Below are positions 540 through 52,561 of a DNA stretch of 64,000 nucleotides, piece by piece. The notes under the pieces were generated by a model. That model made no database searches and was not told the origin of the DNA. It saw only the letters and a list, made by a program, of their open reading frames with translations. Each line of letters opens with the position of its first letter. Position 1 is the stretch's first letter. The position numbers and the translations under genes were made by a program. The stretch comes from an uncultured Bifidobacteriaceae bacterium (GTDB lineage Bacteria > Verrucomicrobiota > Verrucomicrobiia > Limisphaerales > UBA11358): positions 11,121-75,120 of the forward strand of contig CAZHXG010000004.1 in the NCBI GenBank assembly GCA_964536285.1, written 5' to 3'.

Positions 540-4189
<3,650 letters not shown>

Positions 4190-9527: not shown

Positions 9528-9536
9528 CGTTAAAGG

Positions 9537-11855: not shown

Positions 11856-11864
11856 GAAATCCTT

Positions 11865-12212: not shown

Positions 12213-12231
12213 AAAATTCTTTCTATCCTAT

Positions 12232-12699: not shown

Positions 12700-12708
12700 G
12701 TTATGAGC

Positions 12709-36347: not shown

Positions 36348-36547
36348 GGTATGTAAATGAGGTCAACGCAGGCGTCAGGCAGCTTGGCGAGTTGTTCCGG
36401 ATTGTCGCCGCAATAAATGACGCGGGTGTCGAGAAGGGAGCTTGGCTTCAATTTGGTGGCCGTCTGCAAAGACCGGCTCGCGGAGACGGTGGCAGCGCCA
36501 CTGGCCATTGCCCTACCAGAAGATTTTCCAGCAGCCTTTTTCGCCAT
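36344..36547 (-). pseudogene. 5' remnant of a DNA (N6-adenine/N4-cytosine) methyltransferase gene, truncated after 67 codons
   Basis: RVIYCGDNPEQLAKLPDACVDLIYIP stops exactly where the catalytic D/NPPF/Y motif (DLIYIDPPF) should follow. The stop is created at the junction with the AT-rich segment. Confidence 0.7.
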
Positions 36548-36617
36548 GCGTTGAGATTAAGCAACGGATGGCGCGTCGTCAATTCATGGGCGCGGCCACT
36601 TCGGTCTAATTTAAGGG

Positions 36618-36640
36618 AATGGGTAAAACACCCCATAGCG
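36618..36640 (+). promoter_or_regulatory. Conserved stress box (variant) heading the signalling operon
   Basis: AATGGGTAAAACACCCCATAGCG. The ATG at 36671 lies 40 nt after the first C of CCCCAT. Confidence 0.5.
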
Positions 36641-36670
36641 CCCTCTAGTTGACCACCTTAACCTTATGTT

Positions 36671-36850
36671 ATGAAGAGCAGTCATGGGAATGGGAATAAG
36701 GGATTGACGCTGGGTGAATTCATCATGGTCGCATACGACACCTGGGGTAAACGACGAGCCGGACAGATTGTGCGGCTCGCCATCAACACACGCTTGGTCG
36801 AGTTCCGAGGACAACGACGCCTTGTGTTTTCCAAGTGGAGTCTCAATTAA
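36671..36850 (+). CDS. Possible 59-aa leader protein of the signalling operon, below the ORF-track cutoff
   Basis: My hand translation gives MKSSHGNGNKGLTLGEFIMVAYDTWGKRRAGQIVRLAINTRLVEFRGQRRLVFSKWSLN. It ends 12 nt before the dual-receiver gene and has the box-to-ATG spacing seen at other boxes. Confidence 0.35.
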   Translation: MKSSHGNGNKGLTLGEFIMVAYDTWGKRRAGQIVRLAINTRLVEFRGQRRLVFSKWSLN

Positions 36851-36862
36851 ATTTACGATTTT

Positions 36863-37792
36863 ATGACCAAACTCCTTAAAGCTCCTATTGAGCAAGACAT
36901 TGCCGCGCCGGCGCAGAACCAAACGAATCCGCCCCAGCGCATTCTTCTGGTGGATGATGATTTTTACGTGCGCGAACTGAATGCCGGGGTCCTGATCCGC
37001 TACGGTTACAAGGTTGACACCGCTGATGACGGCGCCGATGCATGGAAGGCTCTCAATGAAATCCGTTATGATCTTTTGATCACCGACAATAAAATGGCAA
37101 GGGTGTCGGGACTGGAGTTGATCAAGAAACTGCGTTCCGTGGACATGACGCTGCCGGTCATTCTGGCGTCGGGAACGGCGCCGACGGAGGAGTTAAAGCG
37201 GCACCCGTGGCTGAAACTTGACGCCACGTTGCCCAAACCTTTCACCGTCGCACAGTTGTTGGACACGGTTAAAAAAGTCCTGCGAACTCCGGACAGCAAC
37301 AATTCCAAACTTGATATGAAGACCAACATAATCCCGCGAATCGAAGAACCGGCCATCGCGCCGGCTCAACGACAAACGAATCCGGCGCAACGCATTCTCG
37401 TGGTGGATGACGACAGTGACGTCCGCCAATTGAGCGTTGATGTGCTGACCGGCTGCGGCTACGACGTTGCAGGCGCCAAGGACGGTGCCGACGGCTGGGA
37501 CGAACTTCAGTCCAACATCTATGACCTCGTCATCACCGACAATAAAATGCCCCGGATGACGGGCATCGAGATGCTCGAAAAAGTGCGTTCCGCGCGCATG
37601 TCGCTGCCGGTCATCATGGCCACGGGACATTTGCCCACGCATGAATTTGCCCGCAAGCCGTGGCTGACACCCGACGCCACGTTGCAGAGGCCGTTTTCGG
37701 CTGATGATTTAGTAAAAGTGGTGAAAAAAGTCCTGCGTCCGGAAGACGGCAGCACCGGTCGCAAAGAGGCGTCTTTCCCGATATATCTCTGA
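36863..37792 (+). CDS. Tandem double-receiver (REC-REC) response regulator without an output domain
   Basis: Two internally duplicated modules, PAQ.QTNP.QRIL.VDDD...DL.ITDNKM...LPVI.A.G...PWL..DATL..PF. Confidence 0.88.
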   Translation: MTKLLKAPIEQDIAAPAQNQTNPPQRILLVDDDFYVRELNAGVLIRYGYKVDTADDGADAWKALNEIRYDLLITDNKMARVSGLELIKKLRSVDMTLPVILASGTAPTEELKRHPWLKLDATLPKPFTVAQLLDTVKKVLRTPDSNNSKLDMKTNIIPRIEEPAIAPAQRQTNPAQRILVVDDDSDVRQLSVDVLTGCGYDVAGAKDGADGWDELQSNIYDLVITDNKMPRMTGIEMLEKVRSARMSLPVIMATGHLPTHEFARKPWLTPDATLQRPFSADDLVKVVKKVLRPEDGSTGRKEASFPIYL

Positions 37793-37819
37793 ATGATGTG
37801 CGTTTGGTAAATCGCCGCG

Positions 37820-39070
37820 ATGATGCCGGGCAAACGGGATTCAGGTGGAAGCGGAATGAAAACCAACGATCATCAAAACGGGAACGGCAACGGGGCGCGA
37901 ACGGAGCTGACGCTCCGCGCCTCCGAACTCCGTTACCGGCGGCTGTTCGAAGCGGCCAAGGACGGCATCCTGATTCTGGACGTTGACACGGGGCGAATCG
38001 ACGATGTGAACCCCTTCCTCTTCCATCTCCTGGGTTTTTCCCGCGATGAAATGATCGGCAAAACCGTCGGCGAGCTGAGTCCGTTCAAGGACATCGAGGA
38101 GAACAAGGTCATGCTCTCGCGGTTGCAAAAGGACGGATATGTCCGCTATGAAGATTTGCCGCTGGAAACGAGAGACGGTCGCAAGATGGCCGTGGAGTTT
38201 GTCAGCAACGTGTATCCAGCCGGTGACCACGACGTGATCCAATGCAACGTTCGCAACATCACGGAGCGCAAACATGCGCAAGATGAAATACACCGCCTGA
38301 ATGCAGAACTGGAGCAACGTGTCGCCGAGCGGACGGTGCAACTGGAAGCCACCAACGCGAAACTGGAAACCTCCAACGGGGAAATGGAGTCGTTCAGTTA
38401 TTCCGTTTCCCACGATTTGCGCGCGCCGCTGCGCCATATCATGGGCTTCGTGGAACTGCTGCAAAAAGACGCAGGGCCGTCGCTTTCAGAAAAAAATCGC
38501 CGCCATCTGACGGTCATTTCCCAGTCGGCAAAACACATGGGAAATTTGATTGATGACCTGCTGTCCCTCTCGCGCATCGGACGTGCCGGAATGCAAAAGA
38601 CGGAGTGCGATCTCAATCGGTTGGTTCAGGAGGTGCTGGGCGATTTTAAAGAAGAGACGAAGGAGAGAAATATCGTCTGGGAAATCGATCCGTTGCCGGC
38701 AGTACAGGCCGACTGTTCCCTGCTGCGCATGGTGCTGGTCAATCTGATCTCCAATGCGGTGAAATTCACCGGCAAATGCGCCGAGGCCAAAATCGAAATC
38801 GGTTGCGTTCCCGGTCGGGACGACGAGACGGTGATTTTTATTCGCGACAACGGCGCGGGTTTCGATCCGCGTTATGTCCACAAACTGTTCGGCGTATTTC
38901 AACGCCTGCACAGCCAGGACGAGTTCGAGGGCACGGGCATCGGGCTGGCGAACGTCCAGCGCATCATTCTCCGGCACGGTGGCCGGGTATGGGCGGAGGG
39001 CGTGGTGGATGGCGGCGCGACATTTTACTTTTCGATTCCAAAACAAGACAAAGGCGTCAATGGACACTGA
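37820..39070 (+). CDS. PAS-domain sensor histidine kinase (HisKA, HATPase_c)
   Basis: PAS region (YRRLFEAAKDGILILD), H-box FSYSVSHDLRAPLRHI, and G-boxes DNGAGF and GTGIGLANV. An alternative start lies at 37856. Confidence 0.92.
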   Translation: MMPGKRDSGGSGMKTNDHQNGNGNGARTELTLRASELRYRRLFEAAKDGILILDVDTGRIDDVNPFLFHLLGFSRDEMIGKTVGELSPFKDIEENKVMLSRLQKDGYVRYEDLPLETRDGRKMAVEFVSNVYPAGDHDVIQCNVRNITERKHAQDEIHRLNAELEQRVAERTVQLEATNAKLETSNGEMESFSYSVSHDLRAPLRHIMGFVELLQKDAGPSLSEKNRRHLTVISQSAKHMGNLIDDLLSLSRIGRAGMQKTECDLNRLVQEVLGDFKEETKERNIVWEIDPLPAVQADCSLLRMVLVNLISNAVKFTGKCAEAKIEIGCVPGRDDETVIFIRDNGAGFDPRYVHKLFGVFQRLHSQDEFEGTGIGLANVQRIILRHGGRVWAEGVVDGGATFYFSIPKQDKGVNGH

Positions 39071-39605
39071 ATTTAAAAACATCAAAAACATCCTGTTGAT
39101 CGAAGACGACCCGCATGACGTGGAGCTGACACTGGCAGCGCTGGAGGAGCATCATCTGGCCAACCGGGTCGTGGTCGCCTGCGATGGCGCGGAGGCGCTG
39201 GATTATCTTTATCGCCGGGGAAAATTTAAAATGCGCTCGGGCGGCGATCCCATCCTGGTGCTGCTCGACCTGAAGATGCCCAAGGTCAACGGACTGGAAG
39301 TGTTGAAAGCCATCAAGGCCGACGAGTCCTTGAAACTCATTCCTGTGGTCGTGCTTTCTTCCTCGCGCGAAACGCCGGATCTGGTCGAGTGTTACAAACA
39401 CGGCGTCAACGCCTATGTGGTGAAGCCCGTGGATTTCGGCGACTTCATGAAGGCGGTCAAACAACTCGGTATTTTTTGGGCGGCCATCAACGAACCGCCG
39501 CCCACCACCTCGAGAGAAAGAGCCGAGGCTGACAACGGAGTTCTTTCCGGAAAGGAAGAAATTAAAAATGAAATCCCCGCTCCACATCCTGCATCTGGAG
39601 GATAA
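39060..39605 (+). CDS. Single-domain response regulator (Rcp1-like)
   Basis: ILLIEDDPHDVEL...VLLDLKMPKVNGLEVL...VVVLSSS...YVVKPVDF. The ATG at 39060 overlaps the kinase stop. Confidence 0.9.
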   Translation: MDTEFKNIKNILLIEDDPHDVELTLAALEEHHLANRVVVACDGAEALDYLYRRGKFKMRSGGDPILVLLDLKMPKVNGLEVLKAIKADESLKLIPVVVLSSSRETPDLVECYKHGVNAYVVKPVDFGDFMKAVKQLGIFWAAINEPPPTTSRERAEADNGVLSGKEEIKNEIPAPHPASGG

Positions 39606-41544
39606 TCCAAACGATGCCGCGCTCATTCAATCCGCTCTGGAAGCGGGGGGCATCACTTGCGCGATCACATGCGTCCAAAACCGTGATGAGTTTGTGGCGG
39701 CGCTGGAACGCGGGAATATTGACCTGATCCTTTCGGACTGCGCGCTGCCCGCCTTCGACGGAATGTCGGCATTGAAAATCGCGCACGCCAAGTGGCCGGC
39801 CATACCTTTAATCTTTGTGTCCGGGACGCTGGGCGAGGAAAAAGCCATTGATTCGCTCAAGAGTGGCGCGACGGATTATGTCCTGAAGGAACGCCTCGCC
39901 CGTCTCGTTCCCGCGGTGCGCCGCGCCATGCGGGAAATCGAGGCGCGCGAAGAACGCCAGAGGGCCGACAAGATACTCCAGAGCGAGCGCAATTTGTTGG
40001 AAGTCAGCCTGAACAGCCTGCCGGGGATTTTTTTTCTGTTTGACCAGGCGGGAAATTTTCTGCACTGGAACAGGAATTTTGAGAGCGTCTCCGGTTATGC
40101 CGCCGTGGAGATCGCCCGCATGAAGCCGCTTGATTTTTTTGCCGGAGACGAGCGGGACGGCATGGCCGGAAAGATTGAAAAAGTTTTTGCGGAAGGCACC
40201 GCGATTGTCGAAGCACACTTCACGGCCAAGGACGGCACGCGCACACCCTACTATTTTAACGGAAACAAAATCCAGTTGGAAGGCAGGCCGTGCCTCATCG
40301 GCACCGGCATTGATATTTCCGAACGGCGGCGGCTGGAGACGCGGTTCATCGAAGCGCAAAAAATGGAGGTGATCGGCCAGCTCGCCGGCGGCGTGGCGCA
40401 CGATTTCAACAACGTCCTCGCGGTCATCATGGGTTACAGCGATTTGATCATGTCAGATCTCGGCCCGGACACAGACAGTCCGCTGCGAAAATACGCCGAG
40501 GAGATCCGGCACGCATCGGAGCGTGCCGCCGGGTTGACACAGCAACTGCTTGTCTTCAGCCGAAAGCAAACGGTGCAACTCGTCGTGCTCGATCTCAATG
40601 ACGTGATGAAAGACCTGGATAAAATGCTGCGGCGGCTCACTGACGAACGCATCGAAATGACGATTGTCCCCGGAAAAAAAATCGGACGCGTCAAGGCCGA
40701 CTCGGGCTACATCGGGCAGGTGCTGATGAATCTGGTCGTCAATGCCCGCGATGCCATGCCCGACGGCGGCAAGCTCACCATCGCCACCAGCAATGTAACG
40801 CTCGATGAAAACTACGAGCACACACACAAGGGCGCAATTCCCGGCGACTACGTGATGCTTAGCGTCACTGACACGGGAACCGGCATGACCGACGAAGTCA
40901 AAAAGCGTTTGTTTGAAGCATTCTACACAACGAAACCTAGAGGCAAAGGAACCGGTCTTGGACTGGCAACCTGCCAGACCATCGTCCAACAATCCGGCGG
41001 CCATATCTTCGTTGACAGCGAGATTGGCAGGGGCACGACCTTCAAGATTTATTTTCCGCGAGTCGATCAGCCGCTTGATGCCGCGGCAAAACCGGTCCAG
41101 ACCGGACCGTTGCCGCGCGGGACGGAGACCTTGCTGGTCGTGGAGGATGATCCATCCGTGCGGCATCTGGCTCGCGGTGTGTTGGAAGCCCAAGGTTATG
41201 AAGTGCTGTCGGCCTCGAACGGCCAGGATGCGCTGCGCGCAGCGCGCGAACATAAAGGGTCGCCAATCCGTCTGGTGGTCACCGACGTCATCATGCCGCT
41301 GATGGGCGGCAAGGTGATGGCGGAGTGGCTGAAAACAACTTATCCCGGCCTCAAAATCCTCTTCACGTCGGGTTACACGGATGACGCCATTTCTCAACAT
41401 GGCGTGCTTGATCCGGGCGTGGCGTTCCTGTCCAAACCCTACACTCCCGCCACCCTTGCCCGCAAAGTGCGCGCGATGCTGGATAATGAAACTGACAGCG
41501 CCTTCCTTCGGAAACAAGACGTGACGATCAATCAAAGCCAGTGA
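39568..41544 (+). CDS. Hybrid sensor kinase REC-PAS-HisKA-HATPase-REC
   Basis: N-terminal receiver (ILHLEDNPNDAALI...LILSDCALP), PAS, H-box AGGVAHDFNNVL, HATPase (GTGLGLATC) and C-terminal receiver (LLVVEDDPSVR...LVVTDVIMP). Confidence 0.92.
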   Translation: MKSPLHILHLEDNPNDAALIQSALEAGGITCAITCVQNRDEFVAALERGNIDLILSDCALPAFDGMSALKIAHAKWPAIPLIFVSGTLGEEKAIDSLKSGATDYVLKERLARLVPAVRRAMREIEAREERQRADKILQSERNLLEVSLNSLPGIFFLFDQAGNFLHWNRNFESVSGYAAVEIARMKPLDFFAGDERDGMAGKIEKVFAEGTAIVEAHFTAKDGTRTPYYFNGNKIQLEGRPCLIGTGIDISERRRLETRFIEAQKMEVIGQLAGGVAHDFNNVLAVIMGYSDLIMSDLGPDTDSPLRKYAEEIRHASERAAGLTQQLLVFSRKQTVQLVVLDLNDVMKDLDKMLRRLTDERIEMTIVPGKKIGRVKADSGYIGQVLMNLVVNARDAMPDGGKLTIATSNVTLDENYEHTHKGAIPGDYVMLSVTDTGTGMTDEVKKRLFEAFYTTKPRGKGTGLGLATCQTIVQQSGGHIFVDSEIGRGTTFKIYFPRVDQPLDAAAKPVQTGPLPRGTETLLVVEDDPSVRHLARGVLEAQGYEVLSASNGQDALRAAREHKGSPIRLVVTDVIMPLMGGKVMAEWLKTTYPGLKILFTSGYTDDAISQHGVLDPGVAFLSKPYTPATLARKVRAMLDNETDSAFLRKQDVTINQSQ

Positions 41545-41572
41545 TTACTTCACAGACCAACCGACTGATGAT

Positions 41573-44500
41573 TTGCGCGTGCGTAATGCGGCTGGTGGTA
41601 ATCCGCTGCCTTCTCACGGCCGCAGACCAAAATCAACTTTCGAAATCCTCCGGCGATTTGGAGAACTTGACGCTGTGAGCGCAAATACACATCTGTCCCG
41701 GTTCCGATCCCCATTCGTCTGGAGCGCTCTCGTCTTGTGCCTCGCCGCGTCCCATTGTCTGGCGCTTGACCCGGAAAAAACCATCTTCCAAAACAATTGC
41801 AGGACATGGACCCGCCAGAACGGGCTCCCGGCCGACGGCGTCAACGCCATCGCTCAAACCGCCGACGGCTACCTCTGGCTTGGAACCGCCGACGGTCTGG
41901 TCTCGTTCGACGGCATCGAATTCAAATCGCACCGCTTAAATCAACTGCAAAGCCAGATCGTCACCAGCCTCTCCAGTTCCCGGGACGGCGGCCTTTGGAT
42001 GGGCATGGAGCATGGTGCTTTCGCTTATTACGACGGACAAAACATTACATACCAAGGCAAAGAATCTTGGGGCGGCGTCAACCTTAACATTCATTCCATC
42101 TTGGAAACCAGCGACCACACGGTGTGGTTGGCGGCGGAGACTCAACTTGCCATACTGACCAAGGAACGACTCTTCCAAACCGTCGGAAGCAACGACACCA
42201 CCGCGCTCATGCAGGATTCCAAGGGCCGAATCTGGATCGGCACCGCCCATCACGGCCTTTTCTGGTGGGAAAATGGAGTCCTCACCCAGTTTCCCGATCA
42301 TGCCGTTGATGGCCAGGAAATCCGCGCCCTGACCGAGGACAAAAACGGCCAGCTCTGGATCGGCACCGATTGGGGACCGTTCTGCTATGATTCAAACTTT
42401 TTGAGAAAAGACTTCCCTTTTCCATGGTATCCCATCCGCGCCCTTCTGGTGGATCGCGAGGGCGCACTCTGGATGGGAACCACCGGCGCGGGCCTGATCA
42501 AATATCAAAATGGCACGACCACATCGTTTCGCAAGCAGGACGGCCTGGTTGACGACAACGTCTCCGCGCTGGCCGAAGATCAGGAGGGCAACCTCTGGGT
42601 TGGCACTCGGAGCGGTCTCAGCGAGTTCTCCGACTTTAAAATCCCGACCTTTACCAAAACCGAAGGAGTTCCCGCCGAGATCATCACGGACGTCTCCGCG
42701 TCCCGTAACGGCGGCCTTTGGCTGGCCACCGGCCACGGCTTTACCTACTTCGACGGCAAAGGCAACAGCTCGACCACGCTTCTGGGCCTGACCAACGAAT
42801 ACGTCAACAGAATCTTCGAGGCAAAAAACCGGGACATTTACCTCATCAATGGTTACAAGGACATTGAGATTTTCCGCGGCACCAACGTGCTCGCCCGCTA
42901 CACCAACGACGACTGGCCCACCGCTTTTGGCGAAGATGACAAAGGCGTGGTCGTCTCCGTCGGAAAAAACCTTTTCCGCGTTGGGACAAACTATTTTTCC
43001 CCCTTCCCATTCGTCGGCGGTCAGAACCCGGAACTGGGCTGGATTTTCAACATTGCCACCGGACGCGACGGCTCCCTCTGGCTGGCCACCGATGCCGGCA
43101 TTTGCAGCATCAAGGATGGCGTCTTCAAATTATGGTCCGCCAAGGATGGCCTGGCCGACAGCCATGCCGTATGGGTCTGTGAAGACAACGAGGGTGTTGT
43201 CTGGGCCGGCTTGAACAAAGGCATCGCCCGAATCAAAGACGGAAAAGTCACCACAGTCAATCACGACCACGGCTTGTTCGACGACATCATTTACTCCGCC
43301 ATACCCGACAATCGCGGCCGTCTCTGGGTGGATTCCAGCCGCGGTTTTTTCAGCCTTGAGATAGGGGACTTCGATGATTTCACCAACGGCAAAACCAATC
43401 ATGTCACCTGCACCGATTTCACCGGACTTGACGGCGTCAAAAGTTCAGACCGGTTTCAACAAAAAGAAGCGGGCTGCAGGACACTCGACGGCCGCATCTG
43501 GTTCCCCACGGCCCAAGGCGTCGCCATGATTGATCCTGACCGCATCAAAACCCAGTCCGTTCCTCCGCGCATTTACGTCCAGAGCACCCGCGTCGACGGA
43601 ACGGAATTCAAGCCACGCGAGAAAACCGTCCGTCCCGGCAAGGGCAACTTGGAATTCCAATACACCGGCTTGAGCTACATCGCCCCCCAGCGAATTCACT
43701 ACCGCTACATGCTTGAGGGTTATGATAAAGAATGGGTGGACGCCGGCACTCGCCGCGCCGCTTTCTACACCAACCTCAAACCCGGACAATATCGTTTCCT
43801 CGTCCAGGCGTGCAATGAGGACGGCGTCTGGAGCACCGACCCGGCATCCGTTGATGTCGAACTTCTTCCTTACTTCTACCAGACCGCGTGGTTCATCTCC
43901 ATTGCCGTTGCCGCCTTCATCGCCGCCCTCCTGGCGATCTACGCCTGGCGTCTCAAGCTCCTCACCCACAAACAGCAACAATTGCAAAAAAACCGTGACC
44001 TTCTGGAAGCTGAAGTCGCCAGCCGGACGACGGAACTCGCCTACGAGCGCGATTTGTTGGGGGCGCTGCTGGAATATTCCCCGGATCCGATTTATTTCAA
44101 GGATTTGCAATCCCGTTTTTTGAAAACCAGCCGACACATGGTCGTATTTTCCGGGATGAAGGACGTGAATGATTTGGTGGGTAAGACGGATTTTGATTTT
44201 TTTGCGGAGGAACATGCGCGTCCGGCCTTCGAGGACGAACAGGAAATCATGCGCACCGGTCTCCCATTGATCGGCAAGGTGGAAAAAGAGGTTTTGAAAG
44301 GCGGGCGGGAGACTTGGGCGCTCACGAGTAAAATGCCGCTTCGCGATAAAGCTGGCCAGATCATCGGCACGTTCGGCATCTCCAAAGACATCACGGTTAT
44401 CAAACAAGGCGAAGTTGAACTGGCTTACCAACGCGATCTGCTTGAGACGCTGATGGATTATTCTCCCGACTCCATTTTCTTCAAAGACCTGCAATCGCGT

Positions 44501-47500
44501 TTCGTAAGGGTCAGCCGCTCGGAGGTGAATAATTTGAGGCGAGTATCTTTAAGCCATTACCGCGCCTCCCATCCAGCCGATGGAGAAGACTCATTGCCGT
44601 CGCACCTCGCGAGCGTGGAAGAATTTGAAAAATATGTCATCGGGAAGTCGGACGCTGAAATTTATGGGCATGAACGGGCTGGTGAATTTGCCCACGATGA
44701 GGAAGAAATCGTGCGCACGGGCCAGCCGATGATTGGGAAAATTGAACAGACGATTTGCCCCGATGGCAGTGTCATCTGGTATATGACCACAAAAGTTCCC
44801 TGGCGCAACAAGGATGGAGAAATCATAGGTACTTTCGGCACTGCCAGAGAAATTTCCGACCTGAAGAACGCCGAAGCCAAATTGGAACAGGTGAATAAAC
44901 AATTGCAGTGGAAGACGGCGTTCCTTGAGGCCCAAGTGAATTCCTCCATAGACGGAATTTTAGTCGTGGATCAGGAGGGAAAGAAAAGCCTCCAAAACCA
45001 GAGGTTTGCCGACCTGTTCAAAATTCCACAGGGCATCATTGATGGGAACGATGACGCGGCTCAAGTCTTGTGGATTACAAACACAGCCAAAAACCCTGAA
45101 CAGTTCGCCGAAAAAATCTGCTATCTTAATGCTCACCCGAATGAAATCAGTCGCGATGAGATTGAACTCAAGGGCGGGACAATTCTGGATCGATACTCTT
45201 CTCCCGTGGTTGGCCAAGACGGAAAATACTACGGCAGAATCTGGACGTTCCGCGACATCACGGAGCGCAAGCGGGTGGAGGAAGCCTCTGCAGCGCAGCA
45301 GAGGTTGTTGGACAGTTTAATCGCGGCCGTCCCCGACCTGATCTATTTCAAGGATCGGGAAAGCCGCTTCGTCCGAATCAACGAGGCGTTTGCCCGAAGA
45401 TCTGGTTTGATCGACGTCAAAGCGGCGCTGGGAAAGACCGATTTCGACCTCTTTGGAGAACAGCACGCGCGCCAGGCTTACGAAGACGAACAACGAATCA
45501 TGGCCACCGGCCAGCCGATGATTAACAAGGAAGAGCGGGAAGACTGGCCGGACGGGCGGATCACATGGGCAACGAGCACCAAGCTGCCGATGTTCGACAA
45601 TAGCGGGAAGATTGCCGGCATCATGGGCATTTCACACGACATCACCGACTTGAAACGGGCCGATGTCCTGCTGCGGCGAACCGAGGAGCTTTACCGCAAT
45701 GCCATCGCCGGCGCGGATGCAGTGCCCTATTCATCCGATCTCAAGACAAAATCGTATGTGTTCATGGGCGAGGGAATCCAGCAATTGATCGGATATGCGC
45801 CGCACGAAGTGAACGACGCCCTCTGGCAGAAAATCATCCAAAAATCAGTCATGCTGGGTGAGACGGCCGGATTGGACAAGGACGAGGCCGCCCGGCGGGT
45901 GGCTAGCGGTGACATCCGGCACTGGCGTTGCGACATGTGCATCACCACCCGAGATGGAAAAACACGCTGGATTGCTGACGCCTCCGTCCTCAAACTCGAT
46001 GAGTCCGGCCAGCCAATCGGGTCCATGGGCATCCTTCAGGACATCACCGAGCGCAAACTCGCGGACGAAAGTGCCAACCGTTTGGCCGCGATTATCGAAT
46101 ATTCGGACGAGGCAATTATCAGCGAGACCTTGAAAGGCATCATCACCAGTTGGAATTCTGCGGCGGAAAAAATGTTCGGCTACACCCCGTCGGAAATTAT
46201 TGGCCAACCGTTACAGGTGCTCGTTCCGCCAGATTACCTCCATGAGGAAGTGGAGATACTGGCCGGCTTTGCCAGAGGTGAACTTGTCCGGCATTTTGAA
46301 ACTGTCCGGATTCGAAAGAACGGCCAACGATTCGATGTCTCGACCACAATTTCCCCGATCAAAGATTCCGACGGAAAAATCATTGGCGCATCAAAGATCA
46401 TCCGTGACATCACCGAGCGCAAGCGGCTCGAAGCGCAGTTGGTTCAATCGCAGAAGATGGAAACCGTCGGCAAACTGGCCGGCGGTTTCGCGCACGAGTT
46501 CAACAGCATCCTGACGGCCATCATCGGCCAGAGTGAATTGCTGCTCGGCGATCTTCCCGCCGGAAGTCCACTGGCCAAAAACGCGACCGAAATCAGCAAG
46601 GCCGCCGGGCGTGCCGCCAGACTGACCCAGCAACTCCTGGCGTATGGCCGCAAACAGTTTCTCCAACAGGAAATCCTTGATCTCAACCGGGTCATCGCGA
46701 GCATGGAAAGCATGTTTCACCATCTCATGGGCATCGAGGTGGATACGCAGATCGTTCCTGCCCCTGATCTGCAAGCAGTGAAGGCGGACGCCGGACAGAT
46801 TGAACAGGTCATTATGAACATGGCCATCAACGCGCGCGATGCCATGCCCAACGGCGGCAAACTCACGTTGGAAACCGCGAACGTCTCGTTCGACCCGGAG
46901 AGCGTGGGCCGTTATCCGGAATTGAAACCGGGCAACTACGTGATGCTGGCGATCACGGACACCGGCATGGGCATGAGCGAGGAAGTGAAGGCGCGCATAT
47001 TCGAGCCGTTTTTTACGACCAAGGGCGTTGGTCAGGGAACAGGTTTGGGATTGTCCACCTGTTACGGCATCGTCAAGCAAAGCGGCGGTCATATCAGCGT
47101 TTATAGCGAGCCGGGTCGGGGCACAACTTTCAAAATTTATCTACCACAAGTCGAACAGAAGGCGAAAATTTCCATTCAACGTCTTGACTCACCTGATTTG
47201 CCGCGCGGAACGGAAACTATTTTGCTGGTCGAGGACGATCCCGCCCTGCGGGAGATGGCGGCGACATTGTTGCGACGGCTGGGTTACACCGTTTTGACGG
47301 CGGCCAATGGCATCGAAGCCTTGAGCGTGAAACATGAACGAAGCACCGGGCACATAGATTTGTTGTTTACCGATGTCGTCATGCCGCACATGAGCGGCAA
47401 GGAACTGGCCGATCGCGTGCGGGCGTTGTATCCTTACACGAAAATTCTTTTCACCTCCGCCTACACCGAGAACGCCATCGTCCATCAAGGCGTGTTGAAC

Positions 47501-47659
47501 AAAGGCGTGAACCTTTTGCAAAAGCCGTTCACGCCGTCCGCACTGGCGCACAAATTACGGGAAGTGCTGGACCAACAGGGCGCTCCGAACCCGGATAATG
47601 CGCAAAAAGAAACTGGCTTCGAGAAAATCTCCGAAGAAGCAAAGACGCCCGGGAACTGA
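41573..47659 (+). CDS. Giant hybrid sensor kinase: periplasmic beta-propeller (Reg_prop repeats) plus Y_Y_Y domain, TM, about 7 PAS domains, HisKA, HATPase and REC
   Basis: 2028 aa. Repeated LWIGT/LWMGT/LWVGT propeller blades, Y_Y_Y motif IHYRYMLEGYDKEW, and TM segment AWFISIAVAAFIAALLAIYAW. Three copies of a PAS module (IYFKDLQSRF...GKTDFDFF...DEQEIMRTG). H-box AGGFAHEFNSIL and a C-terminal receiver. The exact start is uncertain. Confidence 0.9.
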   Translation: MRVRNAAGGNPLPSHGRRPKSTFEILRRFGELDAVSANTHLSRFRSPFVWSALVLCLAASHCLALDPEKTIFQNNCRTWTRQNGLPADGVNAIAQTADGYLWLGTADGLVSFDGIEFKSHRLNQLQSQIVTSLSSSRDGGLWMGMEHGAFAYYDGQNITYQGKESWGGVNLNIHSILETSDHTVWLAAETQLAILTKERLFQTVGSNDTTALMQDSKGRIWIGTAHHGLFWWENGVLTQFPDHAVDGQEIRALTEDKNGQLWIGTDWGPFCYDSNFLRKDFPFPWYPIRALLVDREGALWMGTTGAGLIKYQNGTTTSFRKQDGLVDDNVSALAEDQEGNLWVGTRSGLSEFSDFKIPTFTKTEGVPAEIITDVSASRNGGLWLATGHGFTYFDGKGNSSTTLLGLTNEYVNRIFEAKNRDIYLINGYKDIEIFRGTNVLARYTNDDWPTAFGEDDKGVVVSVGKNLFRVGTNYFSPFPFVGGQNPELGWIFNIATGRDGSLWLATDAGICSIKDGVFKLWSAKDGLADSHAVWVCEDNEGVVWAGLNKGIARIKDGKVTTVNHDHGLFDDIIYSAIPDNRGRLWVDSSRGFFSLEIGDFDDFTNGKTNHVTCTDFTGLDGVKSSDRFQQKEAGCRTLDGRIWFPTAQGVAMIDPDRIKTQSVPPRIYVQSTRVDGTEFKPREKTVRPGKGNLEFQYTGLSYIAPQRIHYRYMLEGYDKEWVDAGTRRAAFYTNLKPGQYRFLVQACNEDGVWSTDPASVDVELLPYFYQTAWFISIAVAAFIAALLAIYAWRLKLLTHKQQQLQKNRDLLEAEVASRTTELAYERDLLGALLEYSPDPIYFKDLQSRFLKTSRHMVVFSGMKDVNDLVGKTDFDFFAEEHARPAFEDEQEIMRTGLPLIGKVEKEVLKGGRETWALTSKMPLRDKAGQIIGTFGISKDITVIKQGEVELAYQRDLLETLMDYSPDSIFFKDLQSRFVRVSRSEVNNLRRVSLSHYRASHPADGEDSLPSHLASVEEFEKYVIGKSDAEIYGHERAGEFAHDEEEIVRTGQPMIGKIEQTICPDGSVIWYMTTKVPWRNKDGEIIGTFGTAREISDLKNAEAKLEQVNKQLQWKTAFLEAQVNSSIDGILVVDQEGKKSLQNQRFADLFKIPQGIIDGNDDAAQVLWITNTAKNPEQFAEKICYLNAHPNEISRDEIELKGGTILDRYSSPVVGQDGKYYGRIWTFRDITERKRVEEASAAQQRLLDSLIAAVPDLIYFKDRESRFVRINEAFARRSGLIDVKAALGKTDFDLFGEQHARQAYEDEQRIMATGQPMINKEEREDWPDGRITWATSTKLPMFDNSGKIAGIMGISHDITDLKRADVLLRRTEELYRNAIAGADAVPYSSDLKTKSYVFMGEGIQQLIGYAPHEVNDALWQKIIQKSVMLGETAGLDKDEAARRVASGDIRHWRCDMCITTRDGKTRWIADASVLKLDESGQPIGSMGILQDITERKLADESANRLAAIIEYSDEAIISETLKGIITSWNSAAEKMFGYTPSEIIGQPLQVLVPPDYLHEEVEILAGFARGELVRHFETVRIRKNGQRFDVSTTISPIKDSDGKIIGASKIIRDITERKRLEAQLVQSQKMETVGKLAGGFAHEFNSILTAIIGQSELLLGDLPAGSPLAKNATEISKAAGRAARLTQQLLAYGRKQFLQQEILDLNRVIASMESMFHHLMGIEVDTQIVPAPDLQAVKADAGQIEQVIMNMAINARDAMPNGGKLTLETANVSFDPESVGRYPELKPGNYVMLAITDTGMGMSEEVKARIFEPFFTTKGVGQGTGLGLSTCYGIVKQSGGHISVYSEPGRGTTFKIYLPQVEQKAKISIQRLDSPDLPRGTETILLVEDDPALREMAATLLRRLGYTVLTAANGIEALSVKHERSTGHIDLLFTDVVMPHMSGKELADRVRALYPYTKILFTSAYTENAIVHQGVLNKGVNLLQKPFTPSALAHKLREVLDQQGAPNPDNAQKETGFEKISEEAKTPGN

Positions 47660-47661
47660 TT

Positions 47662-50600
47662 ATGGGAAAATTGATGCGGGATCAGAAATTGACGACATTC
47701 ACGCGTGTAGTGGTGCTCATCGCGCTTTACTTCGTCGGAGGATTGATCGGCAAACAGACGACGTTTCTTTCCGGCAGCGTGGCGCTGGTCTGGCCGCCGG
47801 CGGGCATTGCGCTTGCCGCCATTCTGCTGTTTGGCTACCGGTTTTGGCCGGGCGTGGCTTTGGGCGCGGTACTCTTTTCGACGATGAACGGAATGCCGTT
47901 CGGATTTTTCACGCTTGGAACGGCCGTCGGCAACACCATGGGTGCCATCGTCTGCGCTTACCTGCTGAAAAGATTCATCGCCTTCGACAATGCGATGGAA
48001 CGCACACGCGATGTGATTGGCTACATTGTGCTGGCGTGTTTTCTCGGCACGACGGTCAATGCGGCGTTCAATGTCGTCAGCCTTGCCTACAGCGGCGCGG
48101 TCAAGTGGGACGATTTATTTCCCACGACTCTGGTGTGGTGGGTGCCAAACGCGCTCGCTGGTCTCGTCGTCGCGCCGTTCATCATCACTTGGGCGACGCC
48201 GTCGGCCATTCGCTGGAATGGGAAGCTGATTTTTGAAGCCGTCATCTGCGGCGCGGGCTTGGTCGGCGGCACGCTGATTTCTTTTAATTCCTGGTTTGTC
48301 TATGGCATTCAAAATTATCCGCTCGCGTATTTGCCATTTCCATTTCTCGTCTGGGGCGCGCTGCGCTTCGGCCAGCGCGGCGCAACGACGGGAACATTGC
48401 TGGTGTCAACACTTGCTATTTATTCACTCGTCCGCGGAACCGGGCCGTTCGTGACGATTTCTGAAAAGGACAGTCTGATGCTCATCGGCAGTTACATCGG
48501 GATTCTGGCGGTCACGAATATGCTGTTGGCCGCCGCCGCCGCCGAGCGTCGTGCCGCCGAACGCGCGGTGTCAGAAAGTGAAAAACGTTTTCGCGCCGTC
48601 GTCGAAGACCAGACGGATTTGATCTGCCGTTTCAAGCCGAACGGCCTGCTCACTTTTGTGAACGAGGCGTTCTGCCGTTTTCACGGCAAACGCAGCGACA
48701 AACTAATCGGCACGAATTTTTTTCAAACTTTATCCGAAGAGGATGCCGCCGTTCCGTTGAGTTACATCAATTCTTTGCCGCCGGATGAACCGGTCGTTTC
48801 GTTCGACCATCGCCTGCATTCGCCGGACGATCAAATTGTCTGGCATCAATATCGCGTCCGCCGGTTGTTTGAGAAAAAGGGCGACACGCGGGAATTTCAG
48901 GCGGTGATCCAGGACATCACGCAACGCAAACAATCCGAGCAAGCCTTGCGCGCGAGCGAGGAAAAATATCGTTCGCTCATTGATCACATCCCAGACGTCG
49001 TCTGGACCGCCGATTCAAACCGCGACCTGATTTACATCAGCGGCAACGCCGTCAAAGTGCTCGGTTACGGTTCGGAAGAACTTCTCGGCGGGCAATTATG
49101 GTTGAACCGGATTCATCCCGAAGACGCGTCGCGTGTCGGTCAGGCTTATCAGAAGCTTTTTTCCGAGGGCGAGAAATTCGACGTGGAATACCGCGTCTGC
49201 CGGAAAAATGGCGAGTGGATTTGGCTGCACAACCGTGCTCTCGCCACTCGCCCGCGCGAAGGCGTCATGTGCGCCGATGGTATTTTTCTGGACATCACGC
49301 AGCGCCGCCAGTCAGAGGACGCCGTCCAGCAGACGAAGGACGCCGCTGAGACCGCGAACCTCGCCAAAAGCCAGTTTCTCGCCAACATGAGCCACGAATT
49401 ACGCACGCCGCTCAACGCCATCATCGGCTTTTCGGAAATTCTCGCCGACCAAACGTTTGGCGACCTGAACGACCGGCAACTCAAATACAGCAACAACATT
49501 CTCAACAGCGGACGCCATTTGCTGCAACTCATCAACGACATTCTCGACTTGGCGAAAGTGGAAGCAGGGCGCGTGGAACTGATGCGAAATACGTTCAGCG
49601 TCGCGAAGGCGTTGACGGAGGTGCAAACCATCGTCAAAACACTCGCCAACAAAAAACACATTCTCCTTGAATCGAAAGTTGCGGTGGAACTGCCGGAGTT
49701 GTTCGCAGACGAAGCGAAGTTCAAACAGATCATGTATAATCTGTTGAGCAACGCGATCAAGTTCACGCCGGACGGCGGGAAAGTTTTTATCAGCGCCACC
49801 GTCCAAACCGCCGACCACGGCGATTCGGTTTTGCAAATCGCCGTGACCGACACTGGCATCGGCATCAAGGCGAACGATCAGGAGCGCGTTTTCAAAGAGT
49901 TCGAGCAGGTGGATTCCTCTTACGGCCGGCAGCAGCAAGGCACTGGTTTGGGACTCGCATTGACCAAGCGGCTCGTCGAGATGCACGGCGGAAAAATCCG
50001 CGTCGAGAGCGAAGGCGTCGAAGGAAAAGGCAGCACGTTCACTTTTTCGATTCCGATTCCAAGAGCGGAAATGGCGCCGACGCTACTCACCGACAAGCCG
50101 GGCGCGCACGACGACACCATTCGTCCGTTGGTTTTGGTCGCGACGGATGACGACGCGCATCAGCAGCTCATCGGCAAATATCTGACGACTGCGGGCTACG
50201 ATGTGACGATGGTTTCCGAGACGGAGGCGATGGTGGCGGCGTTAAAAGTCCGGCGTCCTTACGTCGTGGCGATTGATCGCAAATTGGGCGGTGGCGGCCA
50301 GTCGGCGGAACAAACTAAATCCGATTTTTCTGACACGCTCGTCCAGTACAAATGCCATTCACGAATTCCCGCCGGAATCCGGCAGGTGATTTTTTCTGGC
50401 GACGGAAACGGCCATTTGACGTTCAGTTTGATCGGCAAGGAAGGCGCAGTTTCCTCGCGCGTGAGTTCGCGGCTCGCGGACGCCATCCACCAGTCCGACA
50501 CCACCATCGGGAAGGAGCTCAAAACGATTTTGATCATTGACGACGAGCCGTCCATTTTGGAATTGCTCACGAAAACTTTGCTGCAAAAAGGTTTTCGAGT

Positions 50601-50913
50601 TTTGCGCGCCGCGGACGGCCGGACCGGCGTGGAGTTCGCAACGAAATATCTGCCTGAAGTCATCATTCTCGATTTCAATATGCCGGAATTCAGCGGGACT
50701 CAAATCGTCGAACAACTGCGCGCGTACCCACGCACGAAAAACATTCCAATTTTGATCAACACCGGCACGGTGCTGAATGAAGAGGAACGCCAGCGGCTTG
50801 CCGGTCATGTGCAGTCCATCACCTCCAAAACCGAGCGCGAAAATCTGCTGTCGGAATTGGAACGGCTCGGCGCGTTGAGTGATGAAACGGTTGCAACCGG
50901 AGTGAACTTATGA
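47662..50913 (+). CDS. MASE1-type membrane sensor hybrid histidine kinase (MASE1, 2 PAS, HisKA, HATPase, atypical receiver, receiver)
   Basis: About 8 N-terminal TM helices resembling MASE1, two PAS domains, H-box MSHELRTPLNAIIGF and HATPase GTGLGLALTKRLVEMHGG. Two receiver-like regions follow; the second is canonical (ILIIDDEPSIL...VIILDFNMP). Confidence 0.88.
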   Translation: MGKLMRDQKLTTFTRVVVLIALYFVGGLIGKQTTFLSGSVALVWPPAGIALAAILLFGYRFWPGVALGAVLFSTMNGMPFGFFTLGTAVGNTMGAIVCAYLLKRFIAFDNAMERTRDVIGYIVLACFLGTTVNAAFNVVSLAYSGAVKWDDLFPTTLVWWVPNALAGLVVAPFIITWATPSAIRWNGKLIFEAVICGAGLVGGTLISFNSWFVYGIQNYPLAYLPFPFLVWGALRFGQRGATTGTLLVSTLAIYSLVRGTGPFVTISEKDSLMLIGSYIGILAVTNMLLAAAAAERRAAERAVSESEKRFRAVVEDQTDLICRFKPNGLLTFVNEAFCRFHGKRSDKLIGTNFFQTLSEEDAAVPLSYINSLPPDEPVVSFDHRLHSPDDQIVWHQYRVRRLFEKKGDTREFQAVIQDITQRKQSEQALRASEEKYRSLIDHIPDVVWTADSNRDLIYISGNAVKVLGYGSEELLGGQLWLNRIHPEDASRVGQAYQKLFSEGEKFDVEYRVCRKNGEWIWLHNRALATRPREGVMCADGIFLDITQRRQSEDAVQQTKDAAETANLAKSQFLANMSHELRTPLNAIIGFSEILADQTFGDLNDRQLKYSNNILNSGRHLLQLINDILDLAKVEAGRVELMRNTFSVAKALTEVQTIVKTLANKKHILLESKVAVELPELFADEAKFKQIMYNLLSNAIKFTPDGGKVFISATVQTADHGDSVLQIAVTDTGIGIKANDQERVFKEFEQVDSSYGRQQQGTGLGLALTKRLVEMHGGKIRVESEGVEGKGSTFTFSIPIPRAEMAPTLLTDKPGAHDDTIRPLVLVATDDDAHQQLIGKYLTTAGYDVTMVSETEAMVAALKVRRPYVVAIDRKLGGGGQSAEQTKSDFSDTLVQYKCHSRIPAGIRQVIFSGDGNGHLTFSLIGKEGAVSSRVSSRLADAIHQSDTTIGKELKTILIIDDEPSILELLTKTLLQKGFRVLRAADGRTGVEFATKYLPEVIILDFNMPEFSGTQIVEQLRAYPRTKNIPILINTGTVLNEEERQRLAGHVQSITSKTERENLLSELERLGALSDETVATGVNL

Positions 50914-51329
50914 CCGGCAAAAAAATTCTCATCATCGAGGACAACTTATTAAACCTCGAACTCGCCACCGATTTGTTGGAGGCGAACGGCTTTGTCGTTT
51001 CTTCGGCGCAGACGGCGGAAGAAGGTTTGAGGATGGCGCGAGAACTTTTGCCGGATTTGGTGCTGATGGATTTCAGCCTGCCCGGCATGGATGGTTTGTC
51101 CGCCACCAAAAATCTCAAAGCCGATTCCACGACGCGCTATCTGGCTGTCGTCGGCCTCACGGCCAACGCCATGAAAGGCGACGAGGAACTCGCGCTGAAC
51201 GCCGGTTGCGACGGCTACCTGACCAAGCCGATTGACACACGGACATTCATCGCCGCCGTAAATCAATTCATCACGGCGGCAAAATTGTGCCAAACAGAAA
51301 ATCAACCCGTTGAAAATTATGCAAAGTGA
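50910..51329 (+). CDS. Single-domain CheY-like response regulator
   Basis: ILIIEDNLLNLEL...LVLMDFSLPGMDG...GLTANAMKGD...YLTKPI. Confidence 0.9.
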   Translation: MTGKKILIIEDNLLNLELATDLLEANGFVVSSAQTAEEGLRMARELLPDLVLMDFSLPGMDGLSATKNLKADSTTRYLAVVGLTANAMKGDEELALNAGCDGYLTKPIDTRTFIAAVNQFITAAKLCQTENQPVENYAK

Positions 51330-52395
51330 AATCAAAAACATCAAACCCATGAGCACCGTGCCCGCGCCTTCGCTCGGCTACGTGCTGGTCGTGGACGATG
51401 AAGAACAAAACCGCAGTTTGTTGCGCGATCCGCTGGAAGCGCGCGGCTATGAAATCGCCGAGGCCGAAAATGGCATGGTTGCGCTGGAGAAAATCGCCGC
51501 GCGCCTGCCCGATGTCATTTTGCTGGACGTGATGATGCCGCAAATGGACGGCTTTGAAGTTTGTCGCCGGTTGAAGACCGATTCCAAAACGGCGCACATT
51601 CCCATTTTGATGGTGACCGCGCTGTCCGAACGCAAGGAGCGGCTGATGGGCATCGCCGTCGGGGCGAACGATTTTTTGAACAAGCCGGTGGATATCCAGG
51701 ACGTGACCTTGCGCGTCGGCAACGCCGTCTATACCAAACATCTTCGCGACCAGTTGCAAGTAGAGCAGGAAAAGTCCGAGCAATTACTGCTGAACATTCT
51801 GCCCAAGCCTGTCGCGGAACGAATGAAAAAAGGCGAGACGAACATCGCCGACAGTTATCCCGATGTCACGGTGCTGCTCGCGGATTTGGTCGGCTTCACG
51901 ACGTTGTCCGCGCATATCGGGCCGGAGCAAATTGTGCAATTGTTGAACGAAATTTTTTCCGCGTTCGATCTGCTGGCGGAAAAACACGGCCTGGAAAAAA
52001 TCAAAACCATCGGCGACGCCTACATGGTGGCCGGCGGCATTTCTTTTCCACGGCCGGACCATGCCGAAGCCTGCGCCGAACTCGCGCTCAACTTGCAGGC
52101 CGAAATTGTGCGACTCAACCACGAGTATGACACGTCCGTCCGATTGCGCATTGGTATCTGCACTGGCTCGGTCATCGCTGGTGTCATTGGACGCAAAAGA
52201 TTCGCCTACGATCTTTGGGGTGAAACCGTCAACCTCGCCTGCCGTTTGGAATCAACGGGCGAAACGGGAAAAATTCAAATCGCCGAATCCACCTACGAAC
52301 GGTTGAAACATCAATATCAGTTTGAACCGAAACATAGAATTGACGTCAAGGGACACGGCGACCTGTCTGCCTACTGGCTCGATAGGCGGACATAA
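51310..52395 (+). CDS. Receiver-coupled class III adenylate/guanylate cyclase
   Basis: N-terminal REC (VLVVDDEEQNRSLL...ILLDVMMPQMDG). C-terminal cyclase motifs VTVLLADLVGFT, KTIGDAYMVAGG, RIGICTGSVIAGVIG and DLWGETVNLACRLES. Confidence 0.92.
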   Translation: MKIMQSEIKNIKPMSTVPAPSLGYVLVVDDEEQNRSLLRDPLEARGYEIAEAENGMVALEKIAARLPDVILLDVMMPQMDGFEVCRRLKTDSKTAHIPILMVTALSERKERLMGIAVGANDFLNKPVDIQDVTLRVGNAVYTKHLRDQLQVEQEKSEQLLLNILPKPVAERMKKGETNIADSYPDVTVLLADLVGFTTLSAHIGPEQIVQLLNEIFSAFDLLAEKHGLEKIKTIGDAYMVAGGISFPRPDHAEACAELALNLQAEIVRLNHEYDTSVRLRIGICTGSVIAGVIGRKRFAYDLWGETVNLACRLESTGETGKIQIAESTYERLKHQYQFEPKHRIDVKGHGDLSAYWLDRRT

Positions 52396-52471: not shown

Positions 52472-52492
52472 GGTAGGGTAACACCCCATAGC
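52472..52492 (+). promoter_or_regulatory. Conserved stress box
   Basis: GGTAGGGTAACACCCCATAGC, preceded by an AT-rich stretch ATTAAATTTC. Confidence 0.6.
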
Positions 52493-52561
52493 ACCCCTTT
52501 GGTCTCCGGCTTATGCTCGCAATATGAATAACAAAACGCTCATCCAAATTGGAGGCAATAT

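Follow-up and report, generated by a model that had tools for sequence, protein, structure and literature searches.

When one run of genes encodes several sensor kinases and a single nucleotide cyclase, which of the kinases are likely to control that enzyme? This question is raised by a signalling gene cluster at 36671-52395 of the 64,000-nucleotide stretch analysed here (the window; contig CAZHXG010000004.1 of assembly GCA_964536285.1, from a verrucomicrobium of Limisphaerales type), in which nine open reading frames (ORFs) succeed one another on the plus strand, eight of them solid genes (36863-52395). The cluster, 15.7 kb in length, encodes four histidine kinases, nine receiver (REC) domains recognised by Pfam and a degenerate one, and a class III cyclase fused to a receiver. 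The initial annotation had read it as one operon in which all four kinases, through nine or ten receivers and a branched phosphorelay, would converge on cyclic AMP (cAMP) or cyclic GMP (cGMP). The nine ORFs, the junctions listed for them, every domain call (by Pfam) and the number of kinases and receivers were all borne out, the tenth receiver being the degenerate one, and a conserved signalling gene cluster is thus confirmed.

The answer that we favour, and that has in our judgement an even chance of being correct as a whole, is that the last three genes constitute the core of the system, that phosphoryl groups would reach the cyclase directly, with no Hpt protein in between, to switch cAMP synthesis, and that the kinases encoded upstream would be accessory to this core. 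The arrangement on which it is built is not an assembly artefact, since three other metagenome assemblies hold collinear contigs that are 99.8-99.95% identical to the window. The source genome assembly comprises 2.38 Mb and is 94% complete, and the G+C content of the cluster matches that of the remainder of the window.

The terminal cassette and its cyclase

The cassette opens with a hybrid kinase of 1083 aa (47662-50913, plus strand) that consists of a six-helix transmembrane MASE1 domain, two PAS domains, HisKA and HATPase domains, a pseudoreceiver and a receiver (His578, D872 and D1004; Pfam and alignment). The pseudoreceiver, which holds D872, follows the ATPase and precedes the final receiver (residues ~820-930); an alignment with homologous kinases shows that the conserved Lys and the MPxxDG segment have both disappeared from it, and its counterparts in G012 and G028 have lost the acidic pocket too. 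The stop codon of this gene shares an ATGA overlap (50910/50913) with the start of the gene for a single receiver of 139 aa (REC3; 50910-51329, plus strand; D54 by Pfam), which in turn overlaps the cyclase gene (51310-52395, plus strand). The latter overlap (51310/51329) measures 20 nt for the longest ORF and 11-20 nt depending on the cyclase start, which is likely ATG 51319, giving a protein of 358 aa, the length of the public gene call.

Pfam, alignments to PDB structures and a reading of the individual residues describe the last protein as a receiver-gated class III adenylate cyclase. Its Guanylate_cyc domain (PF00211, 198 bits) occupies residues 181-358 and contains the metal-binding residues D192 and D236, the purine-selecting residues K232 (in KTIGD) and D301 (in YDLWG), and the transition-state residues N308 and R312; according to the motif positions and the alignment to the C1 and C2 domains of AC8 and AC9, all six sit in one chain. 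The receiver is likewise complete (D29/D30, D73, T103 and K125). In class III enzymes, purine selection follows a simple rule, with a Lys/Asp pair in adenylate cyclases and, in guanylate cyclases, Glu at the Lys position together with Cys/Ser and others (PMC4215837). By this rule, Lys232/Asp301 points to cAMP, and not cGMP, as the product, and the protein should be an active homodimeric adenylate cyclase. The substrate-specifying residues thus uphold one half of the output first suggested, an active cyclase making cAMP, and speak against the other, cGMP.

The nearest solved relatives of the cyclase are mammalian AC8/AC9 and the mycobacterial Rv1625c/Cya enzymes. With the homodimeric class IIIa enzymes of the Rv1625c/Cya type (PDB 4p2f, 5o5k and 7yz9) it shares both the catalytic domain and the helical transducer (residues ~144-357, E ~1e-59), the PDB alignment starting in the helical region that precedes the catalytic domain; however, those enzymes are governed by a six-helix membrane anchor, and the cluster cyclase would be governed by its receiver. 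Control by a receiver is familiar from CyaC of Spirulina platensis and Anabaena, in which the phosphorylated receiver beside the catalytic domain activates the enzyme. We take CyaC to be a class IIIb cyclase, whereas the nearest solved relatives of the cluster cyclase belong to class IIIa. Receiver-controlled adenylate cyclases are common in genomes, and to our knowledge biochemistry exists only for the fused CyaC type. Adenylate cyclase R of Dictyostelium (PMC3009899) and CyaC are, as here, class III cyclases controlled by histidine-kinase and receiver domains, but both unite kinase, receivers and cyclase in a single polypeptide, whereas here they are encoded by separate genes. The genome encodes four class III cyclases in total.

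The layout of the two receivers recalls another known pair. The best solved relative of REC3 is DivK (1.7e-27), followed by PleD, with PhoB far behind (2e-18), and among receivers the one of the cyclase is closest to PleD; this likeness is a resemblance and not orthology, as all NCBIfam scores stay below the cut-offs. The divK and pleD genes of Caulobacter crescentus and Agrobacterium tumefaciens share an operon, and several kinases (DivJ/PleC and the PdhS kinases) phosphorylate both products directly, a transfer thought to proceed without Hpt (PMC7003649). The placement of a single-domain receiver gene directly upstream of a receiver-cyclase gene is reproduced at 50910-51329 and 51310-52395. 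In contrast, the output of PleD is a GGDEF domain making c-di-GMP, a domain lacking here, where a class III adenylate cyclase (PF00211) would make cAMP. Moreover, unlike in the DivK-PleD system, the kinases of the cluster are hybrid, with receivers of their own, its host belongs to the Verrucomicrobiota, and no connection with the cell cycle is known. The pair is, judged by domain order and alignment, DivK-PleD-like in layout and not a member of the DivK-PleD family. Several Limisphaerales relatives carry a fusion of the two genes, which encodes a 510-aa REC-REC-cyclase with PleD's layout but a different output domain; over its first 136 residues this protein shows 73% identity to the single receiver of the window, and the fusion argues that the single receiver and the receiver-cyclase act together.

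That these three genes are, on the evidence of gene order, an autonomous cassette follows from their standing alone in L118 and G028. In G028, which belongs to another family, the kinase, receiver and cyclase are 73%, 75% and 73% identical to those of the window, and the cassette is located by itself after mnmE; in G012 the corresponding values are 83%, 76% and 86%. Orthologues of the MASE1 kinase in G012, G028 and L117-L123 show 73-88% identity, and a metagenome collection yields more than 120 cyclase clusters at >=69% identity, nearly all of them at >=76%. Among close homologues, the organisms given as the source are 'Verrucomicrobiae bacterium' and 'Limisphaerales bacterium'.

Outside the clade, the same three-gene architecture is found in the cyanobacterium Microcoleus, in Alpha- and Gammaproteobacteria, and in other Verrucomicrobiota, where it can be written as a sensor-HisKA-HATPase-REC-REC kinase, a REC, and a (DHp-DHp-)REC-cyclase, and the tandem receivers of the cassette kinases align throughout this wider set. 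The cassettes of Proteobacteria and other Verrucomicrobiota keep the gene order, with 40-53% identity to the cluster proteins for the single receiver and 42-54% for the REC-cyclase; in the lineage of the window, unlike in these cassettes, the first kinase receiver is degenerate. A further difference is that many of their cyclases present one or two ATPase-less HisKA hairpins ahead of the receiver, which are probably a built-in histidine-transfer step, whereas the cluster cyclase has none; only ~24 residues precede its receiver, as in the Microcoleus proteins. A derivation of the short REC-cyclase from the DHp-bearing form was considered and not adopted, since the tree interleaves both forms and the clade of the window branches separately. 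The hairpin-bearing REC-cyclases (L007, L010, L013, L018, L020, L074, L094 and others) always come after a single receiver and a kinase ending in two receivers, and in L020 the single receiver forms the N-terminal part of the cyclase protein (REC-HisKA-HisKA-REC-cyclase). Literature searches found no published study of a cassette composed of hybrid kinase, REC and REC-cyclase, which is widespread and apparently unstudied. The locus can thus be described as a split receiver-controlled adenylate cyclase with a conserved helper receiver, which mirrors the divK-pleD operon and recurs in several phyla.

Upstream kinases and exchange of their sensors

Five genes on the same strand lead up to the cassette. 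The first encodes a REC-REC protein of 309 aa (36863-37792, plus strand; two Response_reg domains by Pfam, acceptors D75 and D226), whose second receiver shows Arg in place of the conserved Lys (LQRPF) and whose homologues in G003 and G013 are 54-59% identical. After a gap of 27 nt (37792/37820) follows a cytoplasmic PAS-HisKA-HATPase kinase of 416 aa (37820-39070, plus strand; domains by Pfam, His198), which contains no hydrophobic segment and has orthologues at 74-76% identity in G012, G013 and L122. The third gene, for a single receiver of 181 aa (39060-39605, plus strand; D70; Pfam and start codon scan), begins at ATG 39060 within the final codons of the PAS kinase gene (39060/39070, an overlap of 11 nt), and its product is 66% identical to an orthologue in L123. 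These three genes are referred to as module A. They overlap by 38 nt (39568/39605) with the gene for a REC-PAS-HisKA-HATPase-REC hybrid kinase of 658 aa (39568-41544, plus strand; D57, His278 and D573 by Pfam), orthologues of which (71-82% identity) stand directly upstream of the cassette in L120, L122 and L123.

The fifth gene (41573-47659, plus strand, as the longest frame) encodes a hybrid kinase of 2028 aa that Pfam resolves into a periplasmic Reg_prop/Y_Y_Y propeller, a transmembrane helix, ~6 PAS domains and a HisKA-HATPase-REC core (His1641 and D1934), with hydrophobic segments at residues 46-64 and 768-786. Its longest frame opens at TTG 41573 and the public call at TTG 41735, and between them GTG 41675 is preceded by GGAG 11 nt upstream and yields a normal signal peptide (…SRFRSPFVWSALVLCLAASHCLA). 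The start is probably GTG 41675, so that, with the public call counted, translation would begin 100-160 nt past the start of the longest ORF. With either of the later starts (41675 or 41735), the gap before this gene becomes 130-190 nt, and not the 28 nt (41544/41573) of the longest ORF. The earlier statement that all junctions overlap or measure at most 28 nt consequently holds for seven of them, four of the eight being overlaps, and probably fails before the propeller kinase, whose gene is separated by only 2 nt from that of the MASE1 kinase (47659/47662). The stretch 41545-41735 contains nothing that corresponds to the small ORFs lying between the hybrid kinases of L124 and L120.

All four kinases keep the HisKA and HATPase_c domains and the acceptor His (His198, His278, His1641 and His578; Pfam and residue reading), every Pfam receiver keeps its acceptor Asp, and three of the kinases are hybrid, with C-terminal receivers at D573, D1934 and D1004. 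No Hpt domain, ATPase-less or stand-alone HisKA, or DNA-binding helix-turn-helix (HTH) domain was detected by Pfam in the cluster proteins, in agreement with the initial annotation, and no NCBIfam model reached its cut-off for any of them.

Do these kinases belong with the cassette? Ten contexts of cassette orthologues were compared (G012, G028 and L117-L124), and in seven of the ten one to about six extra kinases are encoded directly upstream on the same strand. Apart from L118 and G028, which have nothing upstream, the series ranges from one extra receiver beside the cassette (L119), through a CHASE8-type kinase (G012 and L121) or two Hpt-bearing proteins (L117), each together with a protein orthologous to the last ~930 residues of the 2028-aa kinase, to an HTH-REC protein, a PAS kinase, a receiver and a REC-PAS-HK-REC (HK, histidine kinase) orthologue at 71% identity (L120). 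Finally, the order seen in the window recurs in at least two other lineages (L122/L124 and L123) as PAS kinase (74%), receiver (66%), REC-PAS-HK-REC kinase (76-82%), hybrid-kinase core (58-84%), MASE1 kinase (81-84%), receiver and cyclase. These same-order orthologues rule out a juxtaposition of unrelated modules peculiar to one species as the origin of the long cluster. Some side observations concern L123: the orthologue of the MASE1 kinase (7143-9826) has no MASE1 domain and is 81% identical from residue 273 on, the receiver gene after it is truncated to 78 codons, and a neighbouring kinase gene is split, which may reflect cluster decay or assembly errors.

The comparison also indicates how the sensory side varies. 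Residues 1097-2028 of the 2028-aa protein are orthologous to shorter kinases in G012, L117, L121, L122 and L123 that carry other sensors; in the slot of the propeller (41573-44000 in the window), they present a REC, a 4HB_MCP domain, or a REC with a long PAS array, while the PAS-kinase-REC core beneath the swapped sensors remains 58-84% identical. The propeller part has no close orthologue, its best match reaching 52%. From these alignments, sensor modules have evidently been exchanged at a fixed slot on a conserved kinase core. The clade therefore provides a graded set of natural examples, with between one and about six sensor kinases joined to the same output cassette and with one kinase whose sensor (propeller, 4HB_MCP, REC or PAS arrays) is swapped between lineages at a fixed position, which would make it a tractable system for the wiring and evolution of multikinase networks. 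All the parts are ordinary two-component parts; what is apparently unstudied is the combination of a DivK/PleD-like cAMP cassette with a sensor-swapping neighbourhood.

An output cassette that is conserved, with attached kinases that vary from lineage to lineage, is compatible with several sensors converging on one output, and it is plausible that all four kinases act on the cyclase. The stricter proposal that all four form one co-transcribed, branched network free of Hpt domains, with the terminal cyclase as its only output, seems unlikely to us. The genes do share one strand and either overlap or are narrowly spaced, the frequency of promoter-like and terminator-like matches in the region is that of shuffled sequence, seven genes keep their order in L122/L124 and L123, and the cluster contains neither an HTH domain nor another enzymatic domain. 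However, the cassette is autonomous in L118 and G028, module A occurs in genomes lacking the cyclase (G013, G003 and G001), the REC-only proteins could act via protein-protein contacts, and a gap of 130-190 nt probably separates the propeller kinase from the gene before it. Furthermore, regulators with DNA-binding domains are found near the clusters of relatives (HTH-REC in L120, REC-GerE in L121 and L124, and HTH_8 in L123); given these regulators or Hpt proteins in or beside related clusters, the network may include an Hpt step and outputs other than the cyclase.

The same gap, together with the occurrence of the modules apart in other genomes, would suit an arrangement of two or three transcription units placed side by side and serving separate functions, namely a box-driven module A, a propeller kinase with its own promoter, and the cassette. 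This division we regard as doubtful, since half of the junctions are overlaps, the propeller and MASE1 kinase genes almost touch, no sigma-70-like match was found in the gap 41545-41735, no convincing internal terminator was found in the cluster, and the order is kept in L122/L124 and L123. At the 3' side of the cyclase gene, no convincing terminator was detected between 52395 and the next box; an intrinsic terminator there was rejected, as the fold (z = -0.09) is no better than in shuffled sequence. A scan of the window against Rfam returned no match.

Proposed phosphotransfer routes and putative readers of cAMP

According to the explanation built on the autonomous cassette, the MASE1 kinase would autophosphorylate on His578 and pass the phosphoryl group directly, without Hpt, to Asp54 of the single receiver and Asp73 of the cyclase receiver, much as DivJ/PleC do with DivK/PleD. 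Its own receiver (Asp1004) and the degenerate one would serve as an internal sink or regulator. The cyclase receiver, fused through a signalling helix to the class IIIa-like cyclase domain, would upon phosphorylation drive or re-orient the dimer so that the two catalytic domains form two ATP sites and produce cAMP, and the single receiver may tune the kinase or pair with the cyclase receiver. The upstream kinases, with cytoplasmic PAS, REC-PAS and periplasmic propeller inputs, would be accessory sensors attached to the cassette; the two hybrid kinases beside it probably modulate the same receivers, whereas module A (REC-REC, PAS kinase and REC) may have protein-protein outputs of its own. What can be read from the locus and its relatives are the genes, domains, catalytic residues, conservation, fusion and synteny; the routes of phosphotransfer, the activation of the dimer, co-transcription and control by the box are deduced from them.

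The MASE1-PAS part of the MASE1 kinase matches the EspC model NF052574 of NCBIfam at 1.2e-99, with a score of 335 against a cut-off of 1200 bits, so far below the family cut-off that the protein is not an EspC orthologue. In Myxococcus xanthus, EspA/EspC offer a similar case of a MASE1-PAS hybrid kinase partnered with a second hybrid kinase and no Hpt protein. The Esp system governs the proteolysis of a developmental regulator, and not a cyclase.

Several observations weigh against direct transfer within an autonomous cassette. The core of the MASE1 kinase is BarA/TorS/ArcB-like, and hybrid kinases of this type usually need an Hpt, which the cluster does not provide; the HisKA hairpins that the cassette cyclases of many phyla possess are also missing from the cluster cyclase. 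On the side of the accessory kinases, the independent occurrence of module A is to be counted here as well, in G013, G003 and G001 and, in addition, in G012, where it is located on a different contig and adjoins mlaA, and so is the probable gap before the 2028-aa gene. Lastly, L117 (GCA_054638695.1) encodes an Hpt pair at 215-4044 in one tight operon with a hybrid kinase, the MASE1 kinase and a fused REC-REC-cyclase.

This pair has homologues in the genome of the window, with 40% and 43% identity. They are encoded by adjacent genes on another contig (C50:3216-6994, minus strand), as a REC-HK-REC-REC-Hpt and a REC-Hpt-REC protein, and hold the only two Pfam Hpt domains of the genome. They are a specific candidate for the 'missing' histidine carrier, and a route through them is the chief alternative to direct transfer. 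In a His-Asp-His-Asp phosphorelay of this sort, the receivers of the hybrid kinases would hand the phosphoryl group to one of the C50 Hpt proteins, which would pass it on to the cyclase receiver. The type of the MASE1 kinase core, the uniqueness of the C50 pair and the place of its homologues in a cassette operon all agree with such a relay. Yet an Hpt linkage appears in only one of the ten contexts, identities of 40-43% are no proof of orthology, the stand-alone cassettes of L118 and G028 have no Hpt nearby, and the DivK/PleD-like receivers resemble those that kinases phosphorylate directly; on balance, we consider this relay rather unlikely.

If cAMP is made, it would be read by the only three cyclic-nucleotide-binding (cNMP-binding) proteins of the genome. 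These are a cNMP-binding-HisKA-HATPase kinase of 366 aa (C30:~24942-26042, minus strand), a glutaminase-cNMP fusion of 615 aa (C17:~37507-39354, minus strand) and a GYF-like-cNMP protein of 233 aa (C57:971-1672, plus strand). No regulator of the CRP/FNR type was found in the genome.

The box at the cluster head and neighbouring genes

The initial annotation placed the cluster behind a stress box and thereby tied it to a putative regulon. The genome contains ~29 copies of a CCCCAT box, eight of them in the window, with ATGGGGTGAACACCCCAT as the genome-wide palindrome and GGTAGGGTTACACCCCATAGC as the form of the box-marked stress-gene island, inside which the cluster is located. The element at the head of the cluster, GGGAATGGGTAAAACACCCCATAGC (36615-36639, plus strand), is a degenerate copy: its right half, ACACCCCATAGC, has the canonical sequence, and its left half differs from ATGGGGTGAAC at three positions. 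The flank of this box, AATTTAAGGGAAT (AAATTTAAGGGAAT), is shared with the perfect palindromic box before a kinase gene of the orthologous cluster in L124, where two boxes precede the first receiver gene and the canonical palindromic one precedes the next kinase gene. In L124, G013, G001 and G003, the orthologous cluster or module has a canonical box at its head, at +37 to +47 (+41 to +47 for module A in the latter three), and in G012, L121, L122 and L123 box-headed genes of stress type (THIVI_2564, DUF883, holin_3_6, DUF3309, PRC, DUF2934 and ferritin) come after the cyclase gene, as in the window. The next canonical box of the window, GGTAGGGTAACACCCCATAGC (52472-52492, plus strand), heads a gene for a small membrane protein and marks the downstream boundary of the cluster. 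The proposed tie to the regulon thus stands insofar as the association with the box is conserved in orthologous clusters, but the head copy itself is degenerate.

The head box lies over the -35 region, a -10-like hexamer (TAACCT, 36659-36664, plus strand; sequence reading) ends 6 nt before ATG 36671, and this ATG is located exactly 40 nt after the first C of CCCCAT; we infer a leaderless promoter geometry at 36659-36671, and the box would drive transcription from a near-leaderless start. The ATG opens a 59-codon ORF (36671-36850, plus strand), 12 nt ahead of the REC-REC gene (36850/36863), which is probably a leader or upstream ORF and not a conserved protein. Its product has no Pfam or NCBIfam match and no significant homologue, and public gene callers leave the 355-nt stretch that contains it empty, so that its former listing as the first gene of the operon is unsupported. 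A conserved small protein was likewise rejected here, the small ORF after the G001 box matching with E = 0.17. As a side observation, CCCCAT boxes (36631-36671 and 52484-52524 in the window; 6258-6370 in L124) are followed at +37 to +47 by an ATG that begins a short, non-conserved ORF and has a -10-like hexamer ~6 nt upstream. Such an ORF has 59 codons at the head of the cluster and ~21 in L124; the latter is unrelated to the ORF of the window and ends at the ATG of the kinase. A leaderless upstream ORF thus seems to be a recurrent geometry of box promoters.

A box of the form GGGGT-N4-ACCCC has the 5-4-5 geometry of FNR-like sites, and a CRP/FNR-type reader closing a cAMP loop on it was therefore considered, but is unlikely because no cNMP-binding protein of the genome has an HTH domain. 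A broader interpretation is that the cluster acts as the sensory centre of a verrucomicrobial general stress response that has so far gone undescribed, in which a box-driven, possibly leaderless operon would gather periplasmic, membrane and cytoplasmic signals through slot-swapped sensors and convey them by way of the DivK/PleD-like pair to cAMP, to be read by the cNMP-binding histidine kinase, glutaminase or GYF-like protein instead of CRP. We put this forward as a speculative proposal that is improbable in its entirety. If it held, the three-gene cassette, with or without DHp hairpins, would be a widespread and unrecognised cAMP counterpart of the DivK-PleD module. Independently of this proposal, the locus links cAMP signalling to a putative stress regulon, in a genome without a CRP-type receptor and in a phylum about whose regulation little is known.

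Further regulatory genes are found around the cluster. A HisKA_3 kinase and a NarL-type regulator are encoded a few kb upstream of it in the window (30881-33416, the regulator at 32733-33416) and in L124, and in L121 a HisKA_3 kinase and a NarL-type (GerE) regulator are located directly downstream of the cyclase gene, with overlapping junctions (11050-12842). The N-terminal receiver of the L121 HisKA_3 kinase is 77% identical to that of the REC-PAS-HK-REC kinase of the window. Divergent from the cluster head lies an AT-rich gene for a 361-aa protein with no solid Pfam match (35262-36547, minus strand; G+C 0.49 in the 34-36 kb bin), adjoined by a 67-codon ORF. The matching space of L124 is occupied by genes for a CheB-CheR-PAS protein, a HisKA_3 kinase and a REC.

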